Notes: generated from the sequence alone by a model not told the origin. Shown: positions 1-8,182, counted from the stretch's first letter. The stretch is 9,553 nucleotides of DNA from Okeania sp. (GCF_035285525.1 NZ_JAYKGW010000177.1:1-9553); one strand, 5' to 3'. Numbers and translations are program-made.

Positions 1-299
1 TGAAGTAACAAAACCCAACTTTTAACAACTTTGTGTAGATTGAAATGAAGTAACAAAACCCAACTTTTAACAACTTTGTGTAGATTGAAATGAAGTAACA
101 AAACCCAACTTTTAACAACTTTGTTTAGGTTTATATTGAGGTAAAAAAAACCCAACTTTTAAAAAATCTGTGTAGATTGAAATGAGGTAAAAAAACCCAA
201 CTTTTAACAACTTTGTTTAGGTTTATATTGAGGTAAAAAAAACCCAACTTTTAAAAAATCTGTGTAGGTTGGGTTGAGGTAAAAAAACCCAACTTTTAA
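1..299. repeat. Tandem array of 45/46-bp units, 6 full copies plus one partial, truncated by the window edge
   Basis: Unit boundaries read directly: 1-45, 46-90 (identical), 91-136, 137-182, 183-228, 229-274, and a partial unit 275-299. The conserved core is tgaRgtaaMaaaacccaacttttaa. The remaining ~17 nt takes only three alternating forms (ctttgtgtagattgaaa, ctttgtttaggtttatat, tctgtgtagRttgRRt). Units 91-182 and 183-274 form a 92-bp higher-order repeat. Confidence 0.95.
266..297 (+). terminator. Hairpin plus T-run formed by the last junction of the tandem array (intrinsic-terminator-like)
   Basis: gttgggtt (268-275) pairs with aacccaac (286-293), an 8-bp stem with a 10-nt loop, followed by tttt (294-297). 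Only the last full unit carries ggttgggt in place of gattgaaa, which creates the complementarity. Any gene it would terminate lies off-window to the left. Confidence 0.25.
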
Positions 300-450
300 G
301 ATCAAATCTGCTGGCTTTGGAGAATAAGATTCTACCATCATAAAAGAGCAAAAACTCCTAGTTTGTAGAGGGTATGGTTCCCGAAAAATTGGATACAAAA
401 CCCTACGATATTAAATTCTACCGATGCTACCGGATTTGATATAAAAAGAT

Positions 451-605: not shown

Positions 606-640
606 AATTATTAATTATTAATTATTAATTATTAATTATT
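606..640. repeat. Heptanucleotide microsatellite (aattatt)x5, STRR-like
   Basis: Five perfect head-to-tail copies of aattatt at 606-640. The last base overlaps the stop codon (640-642, tca = TGA on the minus strand) of the Cas4-like gene. Heptamer tandem repeats (STRR) are characteristic of heterocystous cyanobacteria. Confidence 0.9.
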
Positions 641-1545
641 CAACCACTTCTCTCAAAAAAACTCTGACACCTTTCCCTCTGAGGACAAATATCACACAAA
701 TACTCTTTCTCCGTCCGTGGAGGTGGATCAGATTGAAACCGCTCCCATCTCAACCACTCCCGCATTTCCTCTAACTTACCCGGAACTAAACACTCCACCA
801 CACTCTCCAACTTTTTCCATGAATAATAATACTCCCCCAACTCAGGCAAAACCCAATAAACAACAGTATCAACAGGCACTTTTTTCTTTTGTTTCAATAA
901 AAAACTATAGAGAGCAACCTCTATCAACTGAGACGATACTTCCGCAGTTTCATAAGTTTGAAAATGAAACACACACAAGCGACGAGACTCAAAATCAAAA
1001 ATTAAATTATTAACCTTTCCTGTTAACTTTTGAGCCTTACCATCTGGTATTTTAAAAGTATAATCTACAGGTATTTCTCCCTTAATTAATGTGCGACGAA
1101 ATACAACACTTTCATGGCAGTAACGCCGATTTTTAACAATGATTTCAGTTATATGAAAAATTATTTTAATTAGTACCTGCCAAACTTCATACAGGCAGGT
1201 TGCTAAACTAATATTTTTAGTAATAATTGTTTGTAAATAAGGAAAGAAAATCAACTCATAAAATAATTGTTGTATTTGATTAGCGATCGCCCCTACCTCC
1301 AATCCCTCAAACTGTCCTGTAAACAAAACCTGAACTTTAGATTCTTGCCGAATCATATTAATTAATTGATTAACTAAATCAACAAAAGCACGATCGATTT
1401 CTGGGATATAATCCTGTGGCAAAAAGAGATAATCACCTCCAAAACTTTGTTTTAAATAAAACAAACGGGGGCAATCAAAAGCAACTTTAACATCATTAAT
1501 ATTAAATGGTGGAGATTGTAATTGAGGTTTATTACTTATTGGCAT
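640..1545 (-). CDS. Cas4/RecB-family PD-(D/E)XK superfamily protein with a 4-Cys (Fe-S type) signature; catalytic residues apparently substituted
   Basis: 301-aa ORF. The N-terminal FDCPRLFYL (C25) plus C-terminal C284-x2-C287-x5-C293 (CDICPQRERC) match the Cas4/AddB-type cluster pattern of one N-terminal Cys plus CxxCx5C. TGKVNNLIF...CVFHFQT occupies the position of the G-x-h-D-x-h ... h-h-(D/E)-x-K-T strands, and it is followed by a QL...Y helix. Confidence 0.75.
   Translation of the reverse strand: MPISNKPQLQSPPFNINDVKVAFDCPRLFYLKQSFGGDYLFLPQDYIPEIDRAFVDLVNQLINMIRQESKVQVLFTGQFEGLEVGAIANQIQQLFYELIFFPYLQTIITKNISLATCLYEVWQVLIKIIFHITEIIVKNRRYCHESVVFRRTLIKGEIPVDYTFKIPDGKAQKLTGKVNNLIFDFESRRLCVFHFQTYETAEVSSQLIEVALYSFLLKQKKKVPVDTVVYWVLPELGEYYYSWKKLESVVECLVPGKLEEMREWLRWERFQSDPPPRTEKEYLCDICPQRERCQSFFERSG
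1283..1290. repeat. HIP1 octamer GCGATCGC
   Basis: Exact GCGATCGC. This highly iterated palindrome is typical of cyanobacterial genomes and is used here as a taxonomic hint only. Confidence 0.8.
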
Positions 1546-1664
1546 TGACGGACTATTTTAATTTTCCTGTTTTTTCAAGTAATTAACGTAACTATGGTTT
1601 TCAGAACTTCCATTCTGGAATGCTGCGCCAACAGCTATCATGCCAAATCCGGCATAATAATTAT

Positions 1665-1703
1665 GACAATAAACCGGGTTTATTGCTGGGATGCGTAAGT
1701 CTT
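1665..1703 (-). repeat. Diverged partial copy of the 'aggacttacgca...aaacccggttt' dispersed element
   Basis: The reverse complement reads aagacttacgca-tcccagcaat-aaacccggttt. The element at 5805-5889 reads aggacttacgca-aag-aaacccggttt. The segment contains the 8-1-8 palindrome aataaacc-g-ggtttatt (1668-1684). Confidence 0.45.
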
Positions 1704-1791
1704 GATAGTGCTATAGCCATTCTTATAAATTATCAGTTTTGTCTATAACAATCAGTTGTAGTTTGTGAGAGTTTGTAATATTTTATCTAAC

Positions 1792-1823
1792 GGGGTTTGG
1801 AGACCAAACCCCTACAGTTTTTT
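1792..1823 (+). terminator. GC-rich hairpin with a downstream T-run in the NTPase/Cas4-like intergenic spacer
   Basis: ggggtttgg (1792-1800), loop aga, ccaaacccc (1804-1812), then tacag and tttttt. The T-run is on the plus strand, although both flanking genes are on the minus strand, so it may be a repeat-family hairpin, a terminator of an unannotated plus-strand RNA, or a bidirectional stop. Confidence 0.3.
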
Positions 1824-1946
1824 CTCACATCTCATTCCTGATTGCCATACAATTAATTATAATCATCAATTATACATTCCTGGTTAAAAAAACCATCAAC
1901 TCTCAGTCAATAAACTAATAGCTCAATGCTAAAAGCTGATAGCTAG

Positions 1947-3941
1947 TTAACCAGGAACAAAACAAATTAATTGTTCATCCACATTTGATGTAGGGGCAAG
2001 AATTTTTATTTTTTGTTCTCCCTCAAGTTGTGCAATTATTAGATCAACTTTTGAATGCTCTATTTTGATAAATTGATTTAGTGTATTTTCCAGAATGCTG
2101 TTGCGTTCTATAAAACTTTTTTGTCTAATTAAATTTAACACAAAATTCTTAATTTCATCTAAATCTGGATGATTTTGCTTTTCTTGAATATTTGTAGGAA
2201 AAACTATAGACAAATCTTGTAATAAACTACAGTTATTGAAAATTTGTGATTCACAAATTATCTCTTCTAACTGTTTCAAACTAATAATCTCATCTTCAAT
2301 CGCTAATTCATTAGCCAGGGCAGCATTCACCAAACTATGATATGTAGCCAGAAAATAAACCGACTCCAAATTAGGTATAATGTGAATATTTTTTGACCTA
2401 CCTTGGAAAATTTTTCTATACATTCTGTAACTAAGATTATTAACATTTCCTACATCAGCAGCTCTCAGCAAATATAAAGTTTCACATAACTTTTTATCCA
2501 CAACTTTCTGGCAAGCATTCATCGTATTGAAAAAGCTATTCATATTTGGATCTTCAGTCCAAACTACACCAATAATTTCTTCTTGATTTTGTTGTTTATA
2601 ACTCAAAGAATAGTTAGCATATTTCCCACTTAATAATTTAGTTTTCACCTCCTGATATTGTAAAGCATTTAATACTTCTGCTAACATCCGAATCAATTCC
2701 GGTGCTGCTAAATAAGTAATTTTACTAATTTTTTTCTGAGTCTTGTTGTAGTTTTCTTGCCAAATCAACTTAAAAGTTTCCCAATGTGTTTTTGGTACTA
2801 AATCTTGACTATTTTCTGTCTGATTTAATAATTTTATTTTGTACTGCTCATATTCCTTACGTCCTAACTCTAATATATTCCGAGGTAGAGTTTTACCACT
2901 GGGAAACTTCTGTTCTAATATTTCTTTTGACAAAGGGAATATAGCAGATTCAGGCTGTGGTTTTGCCAGAGAATATAAAAGATTTAATCGAGCTGCTAAT
3001 ATAGCTTCACCCTGTTCTAAACTAATGGGTTTTAAATGAAAATATCCCGCATTAACTCTCGCTTTATCTGCTGGTTGAATCAAGACAGAATTTTGTTTCC
3101 AGGTACTCGTAATAATACTAATAATTATCAAAAAATTCTGTGGATAGTGAGTATGAATACTAGAATTAACATTAAATAATGCTTGTAAATCTAAAGTTCC
3201 ATTTAACAACCGAGGAATATTATCAAGATTATCAAAACATAAAACAATAGGTTGAGACGCAGCCGAAATAATCCCCAAATTAGTAATAATTTTTTGGGCA
3301 GAATCTTCAGAATCTATACTACCTCTAATTCCCAAAGATTTTAAATCCCCCTCATCTAAATCATCCCCCCGTAACCACTCACAAGCAACATCCCTATACT
3401 TAGAATCTAGTAGATGATAAAGAGCGCTGAAAAAATCATTAGGATTATAAATTCCAGAAGGGTAAATTGCCTTGAGATTTCTGATAAATACTCTTCTTTC
3501 ACCAATAATTTTTTGGAGCAAACCACTATTTTGGAAAGTCAATAAACCTTTGAGCCATAGTAACAACTGAGAATCTGTTTTACCCTCCGGAATTTTCATC
3601 AAACAATCAACAGTTTGGCGTAAGATATGTCGCCAAATATAATCGCTATCAGGCCAAGGATCAATATAAACAAAAAAAGCCTTGGTATTGAATAATTTTT
3701 TGATTCTTCCTAAAAGGTAACTTTTACCAGAACCAGAATCACCCGTAAGTATTAAAGTACGAGGATTATGTTCCTGAGCAACCTGCTCCAATACTGTTTC
3801 TATATCACTGATAATATTTTCATGGATAGAATCAACATTTAGACTAGGATTTTGTTGCTCTTGCCAAAAATTAATGGTATAAAGAGTAACGGGGTCGAAA
3901 GGATTCGGTTTTCTTTGAATAATCTGATCTATAGATTCCAT
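1947..3941 (-). CDS. P-loop NTPase, ORC/Cdc6- or STAND-like (AAA_16-like) with an uncharacterised ~340-aa C-terminal region
   Basis: 664-aa ORF. Walker A is GDSGSGKS (aa 67-74, nt 3720-3743, checked codon by codon). Walker B-like is IVLCFDNLD (aa 232-240). A sensor-1-like hydrophobic strand ending in polar residues is LIIISIITST (271-280). HLKPISLEQGEAILAARL (302-319) resembles the 'h-x-L-x-P-L-s-x-e-E-a' lid motif of ORC/STAND ATPases. Confidence 0.85.
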   Translation of the reverse strand: MESIDQIIQRKPNPFDPVTLYTINFWQEQQNPSLNVDSIHENIISDIETVLEQVAQEHNPRTLILTGDSGSGKSYLLGRIKKLFNTKAFFVYIDPWPDSDYIWRHILRQTVDCLMKIPEGKTDSQLLLWLKGLLTFQNSGLLQKIIGERRVFIRNLKAIYPSGIYNPNDFFSALYHLLDSKYRDVACEWLRGDDLDEGDLKSLGIRGSIDSEDSAQKIITNLGIISAASQPIVLCFDNLDNIPRLLNGTLDLQALFNVNSSIHTHYPQNFLIIISIITSTWKQNSVLIQPADKARVNAGYFHLKPISLEQGEAILAARLNLLYSLAKPQPESAIFPLSKEILEQKFPSGKTLPRNILELGRKEYEQYKIKLLNQTENSQDLVPKTHWETFKLIWQENYNKTQKKISKITYLAAPELIRMLAEVLNALQYQEVKTKLLSGKYANYSLSYKQQNQEEIIGVVWTEDPNMNSFFNTMNACQKVVDKKLCETLYLLRAADVGNVNNLSYRMYRKIFQGRSKNIHIIPNLESVYFLATYHSLVNAALANELAIEDEIISLKQLEEIICESQIFNNCSLLQDLSIVFPTNIQEKQNHPDLDEIKNFVLNLIRQKSFIERNSILENTLNQFIKIEHSKVDLIIAQLEGEQKIKILAPTSNVDEQLICFVPG

Positions 3942-4025
3942 ACTATAATTTGTTCATCTTTTGCAGAATGGTTAGAAAATTACGATACCAAATATAGCGC
4001 TATGCGCAAGTAAGATAAGGGAGCA

Positions 4026-4054
4026 TTGACTTAATCAAAGACTAACGATATTAT
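4026..4054 (+). promoter_or_regulatory. Near-consensus sigma70-type promoter motif on the plus strand (TTGACT-17 nt-TATTAT)
   Basis: ttgact at 4026-4031, a 17-nt spacer at 4032-4048, and tattat at 4049-4054. It points away from the NTPase gene and would read antisense into the wHTH gene. AT-rich DNA produces chance matches, hence the low confidence. Confidence 0.25.
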
Positions 4055-4149
4055 ACGTTATCAAGCATATCATGTTTTGCGCCAGCGTTCGGAGTAAACA
4101 ACCTGAATATCTGTGAATAATAAACCATCGACGGTCTCAGTAAAATCAA

Positions 4150-4177
4150 GTAGGGACGTTCCATCGAATGTCCCTAC
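4150..4177. repeat. Dispersed palindromic hairpin element (gtagggacgtt family); possible minus-strand terminator of the wHTH gene
   Basis: gtagggacgtt (4150-4160) pairs with aatgtccctac (4167-4177), an 11-bp stem with one G-T pair and a 6-nt loop. On the minus strand the stem is followed by ttgatttta. The same 11-mer starts a second hairpin at 7888. Confidence 0.6.
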
Positions 4178-4379
4178 ACATCTGGTTGTCACTTTATGTG
4201 AAGCTTTGTATCAGTTTTATAGATCGGCAGTGTCGCAATAAGCAACAACTAGAGCGGTTGAATTAACTATTTGGGGCTAGTAACGGAGTAGATGGAATCA
4301 ATTACTACAAGAGCAAATCTCCGCGTCCCCGTGTCAAATATTAAAAACATACCTGTTTAAGCTATTCCCTACTCCCTAA

Positions 4380-5204
4380 TTAGTAAGAAATGATGAAAAA
4401 TAAACATCCGCCAATATCTTGAGGAATACCTGCTTCAATTTGTTCTGGTGTGTAAGCTCTTACCTCCTGTAGGGAACTTAATTCTATCTGGTCACTTCTT
4501 TCTAGACGATAGAGTGCTTGATCTAATTCTGTTCGAGATAAAGGAGGCTGTAGTTTTTCTCGTAAATGAAAAATTGGCAAATAGTTATCTGTACCTAGAT
4601 TATGGTCTAAACCTCGAATCACAGCTAAAATCTCAGAGTCAGTAGGTTTACCATTCGACATCTTTGAAGTTATCTTTTGATCTGGCTTAGAGTAGTCAGA
4701 ACAAATATTTGTGCGCATTAACTGGAGGTAATCACTTAACATTTTCAAAGAAATTTCTTTTGCCGTACTGCGGGAGGAATATCCTTGGCATAAAAATTGT
4801 TTTCCTTTTTCTGTTAGCCATACTTCTTTGATTTTCTGAGCAACAACCTCAATCAAACCTTGGTCTGCTAAATCTGCAATAACAGCTTGTCTATAAGTAG
4901 AGTTTATACCAGTCTCCGATGGAGGAATAGCACCCTTAACAGTTGCCTTGAGCAACTTTAACTCTTCCTCAGTTATTGAGCTGACAACTTTTTTACTATC
5001 TAGCAGTAATTTTCCCTGGGGTGATATATTAATTTTTGTAACTTCCTTAGTAAACTTTACTAATCCTTGATCACAAAGTCGGTAACAGATTTCATCCCGT
5101 TCAGAAACCTTCATTTCAGGTTCTGGCTGGATTTTACTAATAGAGACTCTATAGTTTTTGTAGCCTAATAATTTCAAAAGAAACTTAAGATATTTAATAT
5201 TCAT
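4380..5204 (-). CDS. Hypothetical protein with repeated winged-helix-like (wHTH) units; likely DNA-binding
   Basis: 274-aa ORF. There is an internal duplication of the pattern L-x-DQGL-h-x(9-11)-h-x-h-[ST]-x-x-GK-x-h-L: RLCDQGLVKFTKEVTKINISPQGKLLL and DLADQGLIEVVAQKIKEVWLTEKGKQFL. A third related unit is near the C-terminus (LDQALYRLERSDQIELSSL). No enzymatic motif was recognised. An alternative start is at M31. Confidence 0.65.
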   Translation of the reverse strand: MNIKYLKFLLKLLGYKNYRVSISKIQPEPEMKVSERDEICYRLCDQGLVKFTKEVTKINISPQGKLLLDSKKVVSSITEEELKLLKATVKGAIPPSETGINSTYRQAVIADLADQGLIEVVAQKIKEVWLTEKGKQFLCQGYSSRSTAKEISLKMLSDYLQLMRTNICSDYSKPDQKITSKMSNGKPTDSEILAVIRGLDHNLGTDNYLPIFHLREKLQPPLSRTELDQALYRLERSDQIELSSLQEVRAYTPEQIEAGIPQDIGGCLFFIISY

Positions 5205-5706: not shown

Positions 5707-5792
5707 ATATAGGACTTACACGGGAAGAACCCGGTTTCTACAATAATATAGTTGTTTTGAGCAATAGATATCTACCCTCGTACCGGGTTTCT
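5707..5792 (+). repeat. Copy 1 of a duplicated ~85-bp structured element
   Basis: atataggacttacacgggaagaacccggtttctacaataatatagttgttttgagcaatagatatctaccctcgtaccgggtttct. aacccggt (5728-5735) pairs with accgggtt (5782-5789), closing a ~46-nt domain that contains the palindrome tagatatcta (5765-5774). Confidence 0.85.
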
Positions 5793-5804
5793 CCTAAGTT
5801 AAGT

Positions 5805-5889
5805 ATATAGGACTTACGCAAAGAAACCCGGTTTCTACAATAATATAGTTGTTTTGAGCAATAGATATCTACCCTTGTACCGGGTTTCT
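5805..5889 (+). repeat. Copy 2 of the duplicated ~85-bp structured element
   Basis: Nearly identical to 5707-5792. The differences are clustered in the head (acgggaag vs gcaaagaa) plus one c/t change. The closing stem is longer here: agaaacccggt (5822-5832) pairs with accgggtttct (5879-5889). A 12-bp spacer (5793-5804) separates the copies. Confidence 0.85.
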
Positions 5890-6417
5890 GGGTTCACATG
5901 GTTTTAGTCCTGAATCTAGTCTCAATGTGGCCGTTTTGACTGAAATTGTACTTCATAAACAAGCAATGTGGAAATCATGGTGTTAACCCATTAAACCTCA
6001 AAGCTAACAAACAATAAGTATGTTAAAGTAGTCATAAGAAAACAATCTGGGTAAACCCAAAAAATTAGACTAAGGCGTGGTAAAAACCAACAAGTTCAAA
6101 TGTAATGCTGGTGAGCGTACCTATAATCTATAATATATAAAGCTTGTAGCCTAAGAATTAATCATAATTTCCCAGATTTAGTTATCATAAATCTGTTAGG
6201 CAGCATTGAGCATTTACTAATTCTCACCACCTAAACCCTATTTTTTCAAACTGGGATGAAATTTAGAATGTTTCCAACTACTGGGAATCCTAAAAATTTT
6301 GAATTTTTCCAAAGTGATAAATAAGGAGTCACAAATTAGCTATAATTGGGTTCATACTGCCTATTATAAAGTTCTGAACAATATTTGATGTTAGGAACCA
6401 AATAAAGTTGTAAGCAA

Positions 6418-7605
6418 ATGGTTTCATCAATGCAAAAAGATCGAGCAGTAAGTTTGGAATTGATTCCCATATCCAAAATTACTGTGCCAGAGTCTCAGGA
6501 GAAAGATATTCCACCTGAAAGACATCAAGCTCTACTTAAGAGTCTTGCAGATCAAGGTTGTAACTTGATTCCACTACTTGTTAGATTAAAGGAGAACTAC
6601 GACTCTGAATCTGAACAGCAATACGAAATTATTCGTGGTGCTGATTGGTGTCAAGTTGCCAAAGAAATTGAAATCGAGGAACTATGGGCCTGGGTTTATG
6701 AAATGTCAGATGAACAAGTAGAAATAGCTATAGCAGAGATAGAGCAGTTAACTTATCAACTACATATCTCTGAAACACCAAACTTCGATCATCTACTGCA
6801 GCAACTTGAGGTATCATTTAATCAAAAAGTAGATTCTTTAACCAAAGAAATCGCTCAATCAATGAATAAAAATGAGGAGGTTATCAAAAAACAACTAAAA
6901 TCTTTTGACCAAAAAGTAGATTCTTTAACTCAAAAAATCGACCAATCAATGAATAAAAATGAGGAGGTTATCAAAAAACAACTAAAATCTTGGCAGGACA
7001 AAAGCATTGACATTAATCAAATTGAGCAGCTCAAAGATTTGATTACAAGCTTAGAAAATTCAATTAACAATAAGGTAGAAACATTGGCAGGAAAAATCGC
7101 AAGCTCAACAACTAAAAAAACAACATCTATTTCTACAGGAGTGAAAATGGAATTATTATCAAAACAACTTGACGATCTTGATAGACAAATAGAGAAAAAA
7201 CTCGAAGGGATGGTCAAAACAGTTAATCAGTTTTCTCAGTCAATTCAAGACTTAGAAGATGACTTAAAAGTTCAGGTCTCAGCCGTTCGACGTCATTTGC
7301 AGGCAATGCCAGAATTTGATTCTGTTGCCGAAGTAGAAACTAAAACTGATACACCAAGCAAGACAACGACCAAGAGTAAGTCCACTTCCACAACCTCTAA
7401 ACCTAAGACGACTAGCACAAAAACTACTACTAGAAAGACTAAATCTAGCTCACAGGTGGAGCCAGAAGTTCCCATTGATGATTATGATACTAAGTCACTG
7501 AGACAACTGAAGAAAATCGCCCAAGAACGGAAGTTGCGTGGTTATGCGCGGATGAAGCGTCCGGAAATTCTTAAGGCTCTTCGGGAAGCTGATGCTGCTA
7601 GTTAG
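6418..7605 (+). CDS. Chimeric protein: ParB/Srx-like N-terminal domain, long coiled-coil with an internal repeat, S/T/K-rich linker, and a C-terminal Rho_N (SAP/HeH-like) motif
   Basis: 395-aa ORF. The N-terminus, LELIPISKITVP...LLKSLADQGCNLIPLLVRL...YEIIRGADWCQVAKE, follows the ParB N-domain pattern (i-x-v-x-x-i ... S-i-x-x-x-G-x-x-x-P-i-i-V ... y-x-i-i-x-G-x-x-R-x-x-A), but GADW replaces the GERR arginine patch. Aa 309-345 are almost entirely T, S and K. The C-terminal LRQLKKIAQERKLRGYARMKRPEILKAL closely parallels the E. coli Rho N-terminal helix-extended-helix (ELITLGENMGLENLARMRKQDIIFAIL). Confidence 0.8.
   Translation: MVSSMQKDRAVSLELIPISKITVPESQEKDIPPERHQALLKSLADQGCNLIPLLVRLKENYDSESEQQYEIIRGADWCQVAKEIEIEELWAWVYEMSDEQVEIAIAEIEQLTYQLHISETPNFDHLLQQLEVSFNQKVDSLTKEIAQSMNKNEEVIKKQLKSFDQKVDSLTQKIDQSMNKNEEVIKKQLKSWQDKSIDINQIEQLKDLITSLENSINNKVETLAGKIASSTTKKTTSISTGVKMELLSKQLDDLDRQIEKKLEGMVKTVNQFSQSIQDLEDDLKVQVSAVRRHLQAMPEFDSVAEVETKTDTPSKTTTKSKSTSTTSKPKTTSTKTTTRKTKSSSQVEPEVPIDDYDTKSLRQLKKIAQERKLRGYARMKRPEILKALREADAAS
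6817..6990 (+). repeat. In-frame 87-bp (29-codon) tandem duplication inside the ParB-like gene
   Basis: 6817-6903 encodes FNQKVDSLTKEIAQSMNKNEEVIKKQLKS and 6904-6990 encodes FDQKVDSLTQKIDQSMNKNEEVIKKQLKS. I count 7 nucleotide differences, all in the first 39 nt. The last 48 nt of each copy are identical. Confidence 0.95.
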
Positions 7606-7660: not shown

Positions 7661-7887
7661 ATATTCCCCCAAAAATTTGTCCGGATCGAGCAATAGCTTC
7701 AGCTTGTGCAAGTTTAACAAATGAAATAGACTTCTCCAAAAATTAATCTCAAACCCTTGAAATACTAAGGTAGAAATTTAGTGGTTGGAGATGTCTAATT
7801 AGGTAGGGCTGGCGCTCAAAAGTCTTTTGGTTAAGAATAGGAAGAAGTCAGAGTCCAGAATCCAAAAGGAATAAAGATTATAGAAGA

Positions 7888-7915
7888 GTAGGGACGTTGT
7901 ATGCAACGTCCGTAC
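7888..7915. repeat. Second member of the gtagggacgtt palindromic hairpin family
   Basis: gtagggacgttg (7888-7899) pairs with caacgtccgtac (7904-7915), a 12-bp stem with one mismatch at 7912. It shares its first 11 nt with the hairpin at 4150. Confidence 0.6.
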
Positions 7916-8182
7916 AGAATAATCAACAGCATGATTTTCAGCCCCTATCTTACCTGCCTAAATTGTGATCTTGACAATTTTGGATTTGAGAACGCATCAA
8001 CTCCACTTGTTATAGAGATAGGAAAATAATGTGGCATCATCATTAAATTTGATAAAATATCGGTCTGTGGCAGCATCAAAACCAGAGGGTATATTATTAA
8101 TTTGACTGGTAGTCCTGTATATGGTGTTGTATAACAGATTAGCTATAATAAAGACAAATTATAGATAGGACTTACCTACCTT

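Follow-up and report, generated by a model that had tools for sequence, protein, structure and literature searches.

The 9,553-nt contig of Okeania sp. analysed here (GCF_035285525.1, NZ_JAYKGW010000177.1:1-9553; hereafter the window, meaning the contig at its full length) carries three co-oriented minus-strand genes at 640-5204, which encode an RcaD-like winged-helix protein, an RcaG-like ATPase of the Orc/Cdc6 family and a Cas4-like protein of the PD-(D/E)XK fold (Table 1). An earlier reading made from the sequence alone (the sequence-only reading) had put this trio forward as an undescribed defence or DNA-surveillance module, and the open reading frame (ORF) coordinates agree with the three genes and the 438- and 401-bp spacers that it described. 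We consider it probable that the trio, in both identity and mechanism, is an effector-less, motor-less and nuclease-dead Okeania derivative of a computationally predicted class of systems, with a DNA-binding role in the host. The observations that carry this reading are the identity and orthology of the genes, the loss of domains and of the active site from the third gene, and purifying selection on all three.

The rcaD-like and rcaG-like genes

The three proteins of the trio are 100% identical to NCBI entries derived from this contig. The NCBI model of the winged-helix gene has 244 aa and begins at Met31, leaving out the stretch 5115-5204; because the N-terminus upstream of Met31, with its motif MxxKxLKFLLKLL, is kept in homologues, the 274-aa ORF is the better gene model and the NCBI start looks too short on sequence comparison. 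The structural model of the protein consists of three winged-helix-like units (residues 3-69, 73-140 and 189-273) with a long helix at 153-170 and a disordered linker at 170-183, and the family profile matches the SlyA and Z-alpha winged helices (E 3e-4), which bears out the repeated winged helices proposed from the sequence. Pfam, NCBIfam and PADLOC returned faint winged-helix matches only, and Foldseek found weak matches to multi-winged-helix proteins and nothing stronger, with no specific relation to DndG or FokI seen.

A sequence search with the RcaD-like protein found 1280 homologues, full-length and cyanobacterial wherever the source names the organism. Orthologues from Planktothricoides (49% identity), Scytonema and Fischerella (45–46%) are named 'transcription factor RcaD' by their sources, and the Trichodesmium orthologue is 76% identical. 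In Calothrix PCC 7601, RcaD binds the phycocyanin-2 (cpc2) promoter and RcaG is a putative ATPase encoded just downstream, which perhaps aids this binding (Jones et al. 2009, PMC2799420). The same paper reports gel shifts in which the Lyngbya majuscula RcaD homologue 7968 bound promoter DNA, and the Trichodesmium orthologue of the window protein stands in its table of 7968 homologues, beside RcaD (PMC2799420). When one genome per species was searched, at least 387 genomes had a relative of the ATPase, and the 80 best loci were compared. The winged-helix gene lies directly upstream of the ATPase gene in nearly all of these, and the two proteins co-diverge (Spearman rho 0.78). Given the RcaD-named orthologues, the adjacency, the co-divergence and the published table, genes 1 and 2 are, on sequence evidence, the rcaD/rcaG pair, and we hold this part of the reading, taken by itself, to be very likely correct. 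The description of the module as undescribed therefore fell, since the first two genes are orthologues of rcaD and rcaG and the architecture was described in 2024 (PMC10853773).

The AlphaFold model of the ATPase (pLDDT 85.5, pTM 0.85) has its best Foldseek matches among ORC subunits, Cdc6 and archaeal Orc1 (E 7e-6 to 5e-4, probability 1.0), to which all of the top 13 PDB matches belong (E 7e-6 to 6e-5). Sequence profiles were less telling: Pfam placed AAA_16, KAP and AAA_22 near or under threshold, a PADLOC match to SspF was confined to the P-loop (residues 45-89, E 3e-5), and for the window proteins as a set PADLOC gave no significant match beyond the P-loop. PDB sequence searches with the single window proteins returned nothing useful, and those with the ATPase profile P-loop matches only. 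Sources give its orthologues the names 'Orc1-like AAA ATPase' or 'KAP P-loop'. A sequence search found full-length RcaG homologues across the cyanobacteria, cyanobacterial wherever the source names the organism, and the family is small, with 736 matches at E ≤ 1e-3 among 1.84 billion representatives in a profile-free search of the full library. The NTPase with a STAND/ORC-type motif set that had been proposed is thus upheld for its ORC/Cdc6 fold and Walker A K73 and not for STAND, since the sensor repeats are lacking.

The Walker B region of the ATPase has a NACHT-like D-x-L-D pattern, and several homologues carry precomputed NACHT matches; the sequence D-N-L-D, lacking the usual catalytic Glu, suggests a slow, switch-like ATPase. 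The domain that follows the AAA+ lid has a core of helix, three strands, helix and strand, as in restriction-endonuclease (REase) folds, with no D…(D/E)xK. We regard it as probably an inactive REase fold, a call that comes from the secondary-structure topology of the model. An hhalign comparison of the ATPase family with the Cas4-like family, made to test for kinship of this insert, found the P-loop as the only match.

Tandem rcaG paralogues, two or three per locus, occur in Laspinema, Microcoleus vaginatus and a related metagenome-assembled genome (MAG) (L062 6800-20253; L029 6725-14272; L046 8986-20238). They are 42–58% identical within one genome, and rcaD is present beside them once or twice; a ParB-like/ParA pair comes next, on the opposite strand, in L062 and L029. 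Such paralogues may form hetero-oligomeric Orc-like assemblies.

Table 1. Coordinates of genes, motifs and other features in the 9,553-nt window
Feature	Coordinates	Strand	Evidence or remark
rcaD-like DNA-binding protein gene, 274 aa	4380..5204	minus	ORF prediction, homologues, structural model
rcaG-like Orc/Cdc6-family AAA+ ATPase gene, 664 aa	1947..3941	minus	ORF, profile matches, structural model
Walker A GDSGSGKS, residues 67-74, K73	3720..3743	minus	G67, G70, G72 and K73 invariant in 50 homologues
Walker B region IVLCFDNLD, residues 232-240	3222..3248	minus	D237 invariant, then Q/N not E, then D240
Alpha/beta domain after AAA+ lid, residues 386-590	2172..2786	minus	DSSP of model and conserved residues
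C-terminal winged helix of ATPase, residues 592-664	1950..2168	minus	Helix-strand-helix-helix-strand-strand in model
Cas4-like PD-(D/E)XK-fold protein gene, 301 aa	640..1545	minus	Alignment to longer orthologues
Degenerate active site, N179 for motif II Asp, H194 and Q196 for motif III (D/E)xK	958..1011	minus	Alignment
C-terminal CX2CX5C (C284, C287, C293)	667..696	minus	With C25 (1471-1473), Cas4/AddB-type four-cysteine pattern
Spacer between rcaD-like and rcaG-like genes, 438 bp	3942..4379	minus	Hairpin repeat 4149-4178, second copy 7887-7916
Spacer between ATPase and Cas4-like genes, 401 bp	1546..1946	minus	Perfect hairpin 1792-1812
ParB_N – coiled coil – Rho_N protein gene, 395 aa	6418..7605	plus	Divergent neighbour; syntenic across Okeania clade
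Tandem array, about seven units of ~46 nt, two alternating subtypes	7..327		Directly downstream of Cas4-like gene

The third gene and its longer orthologues

The third protein is the reduced form of a much longer one. It corresponds, at 44% identity, to residues 182-480 of an 876-aa Lyngbya protein in which Pfam recognises DNA_pol_A_exo1, PDDEXK_1, FtsK_alpha and FtsK_SpoIIIE, whereas the window protein itself reaches PDDEXK_1 at only E 0.16; the long orthologues also match Dna2 and the Cas4 models of PADLOC. In about 45 of the 80 loci, including those of Lyngbya, Scytonema and Fischerella, rcaG is followed directly by such a fusion of ~860 aa, which joins a DEDD 3'-5' exonuclease, PDDEXK_1, FtsK-alpha and an FtsK/SpoIIIE motor and has neither a membrane anchor nor a gamma domain. 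Other arrangements occur, namely the order nuclease, exonuclease, FtsK in Coleofasciculus, PDDEXK plus FtsK but no exonuclease in the nearest outgroups (L021 and L022) and on a Pseudanabaena megaplasmid, exonuclease plus PDDEXK without FtsK (P0141-P0145), and an independent nuclease-only form with an intact active site (L037). In the Okeania/Trichodesmium/Dapis clade the third gene is reduced to the Cas4-like domain alone. A sensitive tblastn search for relics of the exonuclease or FtsK in the window and 17 related loci found none, for FtsK even at E 50, and because nothing was found the loss of both appears clean rather than the outcome of recent pseudogenisation.

The catalytic residues have been replaced as well. 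Where long forms read D…EYK or D…DYK, the window protein reads N179…H194-x-Q196, and Gln takes the place of the catalytic Lys in all five of the Okeania-clade sequences aligned; the active D…(D/E)xK is present in the orthologues from Lyngbya, Scytonema, Coleofasciculus and L037. The cysteines have fared differently: C25, C287 and C293 are invariant in the alignment and C284 is nearly so. The Cas4-family PD-(D/E)XK assignment of the sequence-only reading is confirmed by the alignment to the PDDEXK_1 domain and by the four cysteines kept. Of the nuclease logic inferred from it, the combination of DNA-binder, NTPase and nuclease fold is present, while the catalytic residues are replaced and the motor and exonuclease are gone. 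On these sequence features we predict that the Cas4-like protein is a nuclease-dead Fe-S scaffold, and the 301-aa 'PD-(D/E)XK nuclease family protein' annotated in these genomes should not be presumed an active nuclease.

This gene might instead be a decaying, functionless remnant beside an rcaD/rcaG pair that alone matters. It has lost two domains and all three catalytic residues, it is missing next to rcaG in some genomes, and its ratio of nonsynonymous to synonymous divergence (dN/dS), 0.24–0.39 against 16 relatives, is above that of rcaD (0.14–0.25) and rcaG (0.19–0.25). However, this ratio is well under 1 at synonymous divergence (dS) of up to 0.7, which argues that the gene is not a pseudogene. 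The ORF is intact, at 68–84% identity, in 20 protein clusters from Okeania, Trichodesmium, Dapis and Microcoleaceae MAGs. The four cysteines, like many residues of the fold, do not vary, and ~50–60 nt upstream of the start are conserved. We therefore think it highly unlikely that the third gene is a remnant without function. Across the three genes dN/dS is 0.14–0.39 at dS of up to ~1, indicating purifying selection on each.

A distant relative outside the cyanobacteria, from a genome with 69% G+C (GC), encodes an RcaG-like ATPase, PDDEXK, FtsK-alpha and FtsK in one chain of 1348 aa (L085 7129-12047). The 288-aa protein that comes before it is similar at its C-terminus to the last of the RcaD winged helices. 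The single chain implies that genes 2 and 3 are functionally linked.

Distribution, neighbours and other elements

The 80 best ATPase loci come without exception from cyanobacteria or unnamed MAGs and span the Nostocales, Oscillatoriales, Coleofasciculales, Leptolyngbya-like groups, Pleurocapsales and Chroococcidiopsidales. Of 81 loci, 36 have a family-4 glycosyltransferase (GT4) gene within a distance of 10 kb, and distant cyanobacterial orders have the module next to family-2 glycosyltransferase (GT2) genes and to ParA or ParB/ParA. No match to the module was found in a phage collection, and a plasmid collection gave a single one, on a Pseudanabaena megaplasmid. Together these data suggest that the module is ancient and mostly vertically inherited in cyanobacteria. 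A variable island was not seen, the GT4/GT2 and ParA/ParB neighbours being stable across orders.

The base composition leads to the same picture. The three genes have 31.5–35.3% GC, compared with 41.4% in the neighbouring glycosyltransferase gene and 35.0% pooled over 296 kb of related loci; at third codon positions (GC3) the trio has 0.23–0.28 and the glycosyltransferase 0.29, whose excess GC lies in codon positions 1 and 2. Since the trio has the GC of its lineage background and a similar GC3, its AT-richness is not the sign of an island. The AT-rich contrast noticed from the sequence is thus real, but the accessory island drawn from it is not borne out by the background or the neighbours, and we reject a horizontally acquired AT-rich island on background composition and conserved synteny.

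The plasmid copy (L084; Pseudanabaena sp. PCC 7367 pPSE7367.01, 183710-203737; 40% identity) has nuclease plus FtsK without the exonuclease. Its replicon is a 329-kb conjugative megaplasmid, and the trio there adjoins IS21, a SWIM zinc-finger protein and a DEAD/DEAH helicase.

The ParA/ParB neighbours raise the question of whether the module serves chromosome or replicon maintenance, by origin-like loading, segregation or double-strand-break processing, with the Orc-like ATPase and the winged-helix protein marking sites and ParA/ParB and, ancestrally, the FtsK pump and nucleases moving or processing DNA. In Nostocales and Oscillatoriales the module is followed directly by ParA, or by ParB plus ParA; the Okeania clade has a ParB_N-Rho_N gene upstream; and the ATPase has an ORC/Cdc6 fold. 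The combination of a DNA pump with nucleases is the end-resection logic of HerA-NurA and AddAB, which the ancestral set of pump, Cas4/AddB-like nuclease and exonuclease resembles. In addition, the cyanobacterial 'FtsK' entries listed in a review are assigned to the HerA/YjgR clade (PMC7766704). However, the module seems absent from many cyanobacteria, the motor has been lost in several lineages that keep the other genes, the adjacency of ParA is perhaps just inherited synteny, and GC skew across the window has no switch at the trio. We consider a maintenance role, in this form, improbable.

Both internal spacers of the trio are long and, as the sequence-only reading had pointed out, dispersed repeats and hairpins border and interrupt the block. 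Among related genomes conservation is limited to ~70 nt beside the ATPase start (3942-4013) in the first spacer and to ~50–60 nt beside the Cas4-like start in the second, and the length of the first ranges from 155 to 1140 bp among relatives of the clade. Long variable spacers with short conserved start-proximal parts fit a lineage with long, repeat-rich intergenic regions. A terminator scan found sites no more numerous than in shuffled sequence and so did not settle the operon structure. Neither Rfam nor a tRNA scan gave a match in the window.

Directly downstream of the Cas4-like gene, the tandem array occupies the place that in relatives is taken by the FtsK part or the ParB/ParA pair; as it has no unique spacers it is not a CRISPR. 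Upstream of the trio, the divergent ParB_N-Rho_N gene is a candidate member of the module. Its protein has a long coiled coil, in which an 87-nt (29-aa) unit is repeated in tandem and in frame (6813-6986), as well as a Ser/Thr/Lys-rich stretch and a SAP-like Rho_N domain. The ~420 nt upstream of this gene (5997-6417) are ~80% conserved in Okeania and Dapis, contain no ORF, have indels that are not multiples of three and have no Rfam match; an invariant long-range pairing of AATCTGGGTAA with TTCCCAGATT, plus two covarying pairs, suggests from the alignment a structured leader or regulatory RNA. A 72-nt stretch on the minus strand (8027-8098) is conserved even with Nostocales and matches a family-2 glycosyltransferase in tblastn (E 5e-5). 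By sequence it is a relic of the GT2 gene that sits between GT4 and rcaD in relatives and was lost in this Okeania. Among the repeats are an exact 61-nt tandem duplication at the contig end (9430-9551), two 65-nt copies 97 nt apart upstream of rcaD (5728-5889) and a hairpin element, AGTAGGGACGTT…AACGTCCCTACA, in two intergenic regions (4149-4178 and 7887-7916).

Proposed role and comparison with known systems

The class from which we derive the trio, the 'Orc/CDC6 – HerA/FtsK capture' systems, has been predicted by computation to counter invaders (Rakesh, Aravind & Krishnan, Nucleic Acids Res 2024, PMC10853773). As described, it combines an Orc/CDC6 ATPase, in which an inactive REase is inserted ahead of a C-terminal winged helix, with an active REase and a HerA/FtsK domain, the latter in some cases of the cellular kind that has FtsK-alpha; some systems also have a fused 3'-5' exonuclease, and some a separate protein with 2–4 winged helices (PMC10853773). 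In the ancestry of Okeania, Trichodesmium and Dapis, the third gene lost the exonuclease first, the pump second and the nuclease site third, keeping its four cysteines. The RcaD-like protein of the resulting complex is expected to bind DNA, and ATP binding or turnover by the RcaG-like ATPase would drive assembly on, or remodelling of, the RcaD-like–DNA complex, as Orc/Cdc6 proteins do. The dead Cas4-like protein may be retained as a structural or DNA-end-binding subunit. Such a complex would most likely regulate host genes or organise DNA, in line with what is reported of RcaD at phycobiliprotein promoters. Because the pump and the active nuclease are gone, restriction by the ancestral route is not expected.

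The defence or DNA surveillance proposed in the sequence-only reading is accordingly a fair description of the ancestry, the parent family being predicted to act against invaders (PMC10853773), but not of a nuclease effector route that is dead here. Defence could nonetheless still be active if the ATPase and the winged-helix protein sensed invading DNA and triggered another effector, for which the candidates are the domain inserted in the ATPase, the ParB_N-Rho_N neighbour or growth arrest. Beyond the prediction for the parent architecture (PMC10853773), this is favoured by distant ATPase relatives that are fused to a HerA/DndH-like motor or to the NucS nuclease and lie beside prokaryotic Argonaute (pAgo) and MNT-like genes, as in a NucS-fused relative that adjoins a Piwi (pAgo) gene (L087 2409-7935). 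Conflict systems typically show the domain shuffling, the losses and the tandem expansion of paralogues seen here, and the Pseudanabaena copy sits on a conjugative megaplasmid beside IS21 and a helicase. However, the motor is missing and the nuclease site dead, the inserted ATPase domain has no nuclease motifs, the PADLOC matches end at the P-loop, the neighbours are stable on chromosomes across orders and the composition is that of the background. No member of the family has an experimental defence phenotype. Overall, we regard a still active defence system as unlikely.

Several points weigh against our own reading of a nuclease-dead derivative with a host DNA-binding role. For Okeania and Trichodesmium its support comes from sequence and structural model, and orthology to the original Calothrix RcaD and RcaG is drawn from database names and a published BLAST table. 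That table, from 2009, has no match from Nostoc PCC 7120 or Synechocystis, which is weak evidence of a patchy distribution (PMC2799420). Co-divergence with the neighbouring GT4 gene is moderate (rho 0.36), co-transcription of the three genes is not established, and the inactive REase assigned to the insert is a matter of topology. An FtsK or nuclease partner may be encoded elsewhere in the genome, our coverage being the 9.5-kb contig and 22 kb of a complete Trichodesmium genome. Lastly, the distant ATPase relatives beside pAgo and toxin-antitoxin-like genes favour a conflict role for the wider family.

A broader hypothesis, which we offer as a tentative one, is that RcaD serves as DNA-reader, and RcaG as Orc/Cdc6 subunit, in an ancient FtsK-nuclease machine of defence type in cyanobacteria, and that in the Okeania/Trichodesmium clade an immune-type DNA-surveillance complex lost its pump and both of its nuclease activities and was turned into a DNA-binding host regulator, with the sensor half and a dead Fe-S Cas4 scaffold kept under selection. 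This would join the light-colour work on RcaD and RcaG (2002) with the description of Orc/CDC6–FtsK capture (2024), between which we found no cross-citation; the main text of the latter (PMC10853773) does not mention cyanobacteria, and our literature search found no paper tying RcaD/RcaG to an FtsK fusion or a defence-like architecture. If correct, the classic RcaD phenotype needs re-reading, and cyanobacteria, which lack canonical FtsK, carry a soluble FtsK pump armed with two nucleases. The Okeania/Trichodesmium version is a clear example of effectors lost step by step while the remainder is kept, the kind of case that is informative on how hosts re-use defence-type machinery.

Comparison with other known systems separates the trio from several that it resembles. 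To STAND and Avs proteins the window ATPase has only sub-threshold, P-loop-level matches (NACHT and nSTAND models) and no Avs match in PADLOC; we rejected this reading because the fold is ORC-like and the model has no sensor repeats (TPR, WD40, LRR). With Cas4/AddB-type 4Fe-4S PD-(D/E)XK nucleases the window protein appears, by sequence, to share the fold and the C…CX2CX5C pattern, but the catalytic Asp, Glu and Lys are replaced. The ORFs and repeats of the window include no cas1, cas2 or CRISPR array, and a CRISPR-associated Cas4 is ruled out by the lack of cas genes and arrays there.

DndFGH and SspFGH have a common logic with the ancestral module in a multi-winged-helix subunit, an ATPase and a large subunit of REase plus HerA/FtsK, and the FtsK part of the Lyngbya orthologue matches the SspH model of PADLOC (E 2e-65). 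Only the captured FtsK motor is shared, however: the window set has neither a kinase-type protein like DndF nor a DndH core, and no dnd, ssp or phosphorothioate genes are found among the window neighbours. By analogy with HerA–NurA and AddAB/RecBCD, the ancestral third gene likewise combined a ring-type double-stranded DNA pump with nucleases for both strands, but its nuclease partners are not homologous to NurA and the likeness does not apply to the pump-less window copy.

The closest correspondence in architecture is to the capture systems. The cyanobacterial orthologues share with them the Orc/CDC6 AAA+ ATPase, the REase nuclease, FtsK with FtsK-alpha, the optional exonuclease and the separate multi-winged-helix protein, so that assignment to a system already described, which the sequence-only reading had named as grounds for giving up its claim, applies in part (PMC10853773). 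In the window itself the ATPase belongs to the Orc/CDC6 family by model and Foldseek, the RcaD-like protein is modelled with three winged helices, and the insert is a candidate for the inactive REase, since it lies at the described position ahead of the C-terminal winged helix and agrees in topology. The active REase is replaced by N179…H194-x-Q196, and neither a HerA/FtsK pump nor the exonuclease left a trace in the window and 17 related loci. Capture systems are placed in 'mobile gene neighbourhoods', whereas the cyanobacterial branch is chromosomal with stable neighbours, and they are known as a prediction by computation.

The first two genes also have a known counterpart in Calothrix (Fremyella, Tolypothrix) sp. 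PCC 7601, whose RcaD and RcaG were assigned to the control of phycobiliprotein operons during chromatic adaptation (Noubir et al., Mol Microbiol 2002, summarised in PMC2799420). There the same pair occurs in the same order and with similar sizes, a 285-aa DNA-binder followed by the ATPase, the Nostocales orthologues bear the name RcaD, and DNA binding has been demonstrated for two members of the family (PMC2799420).

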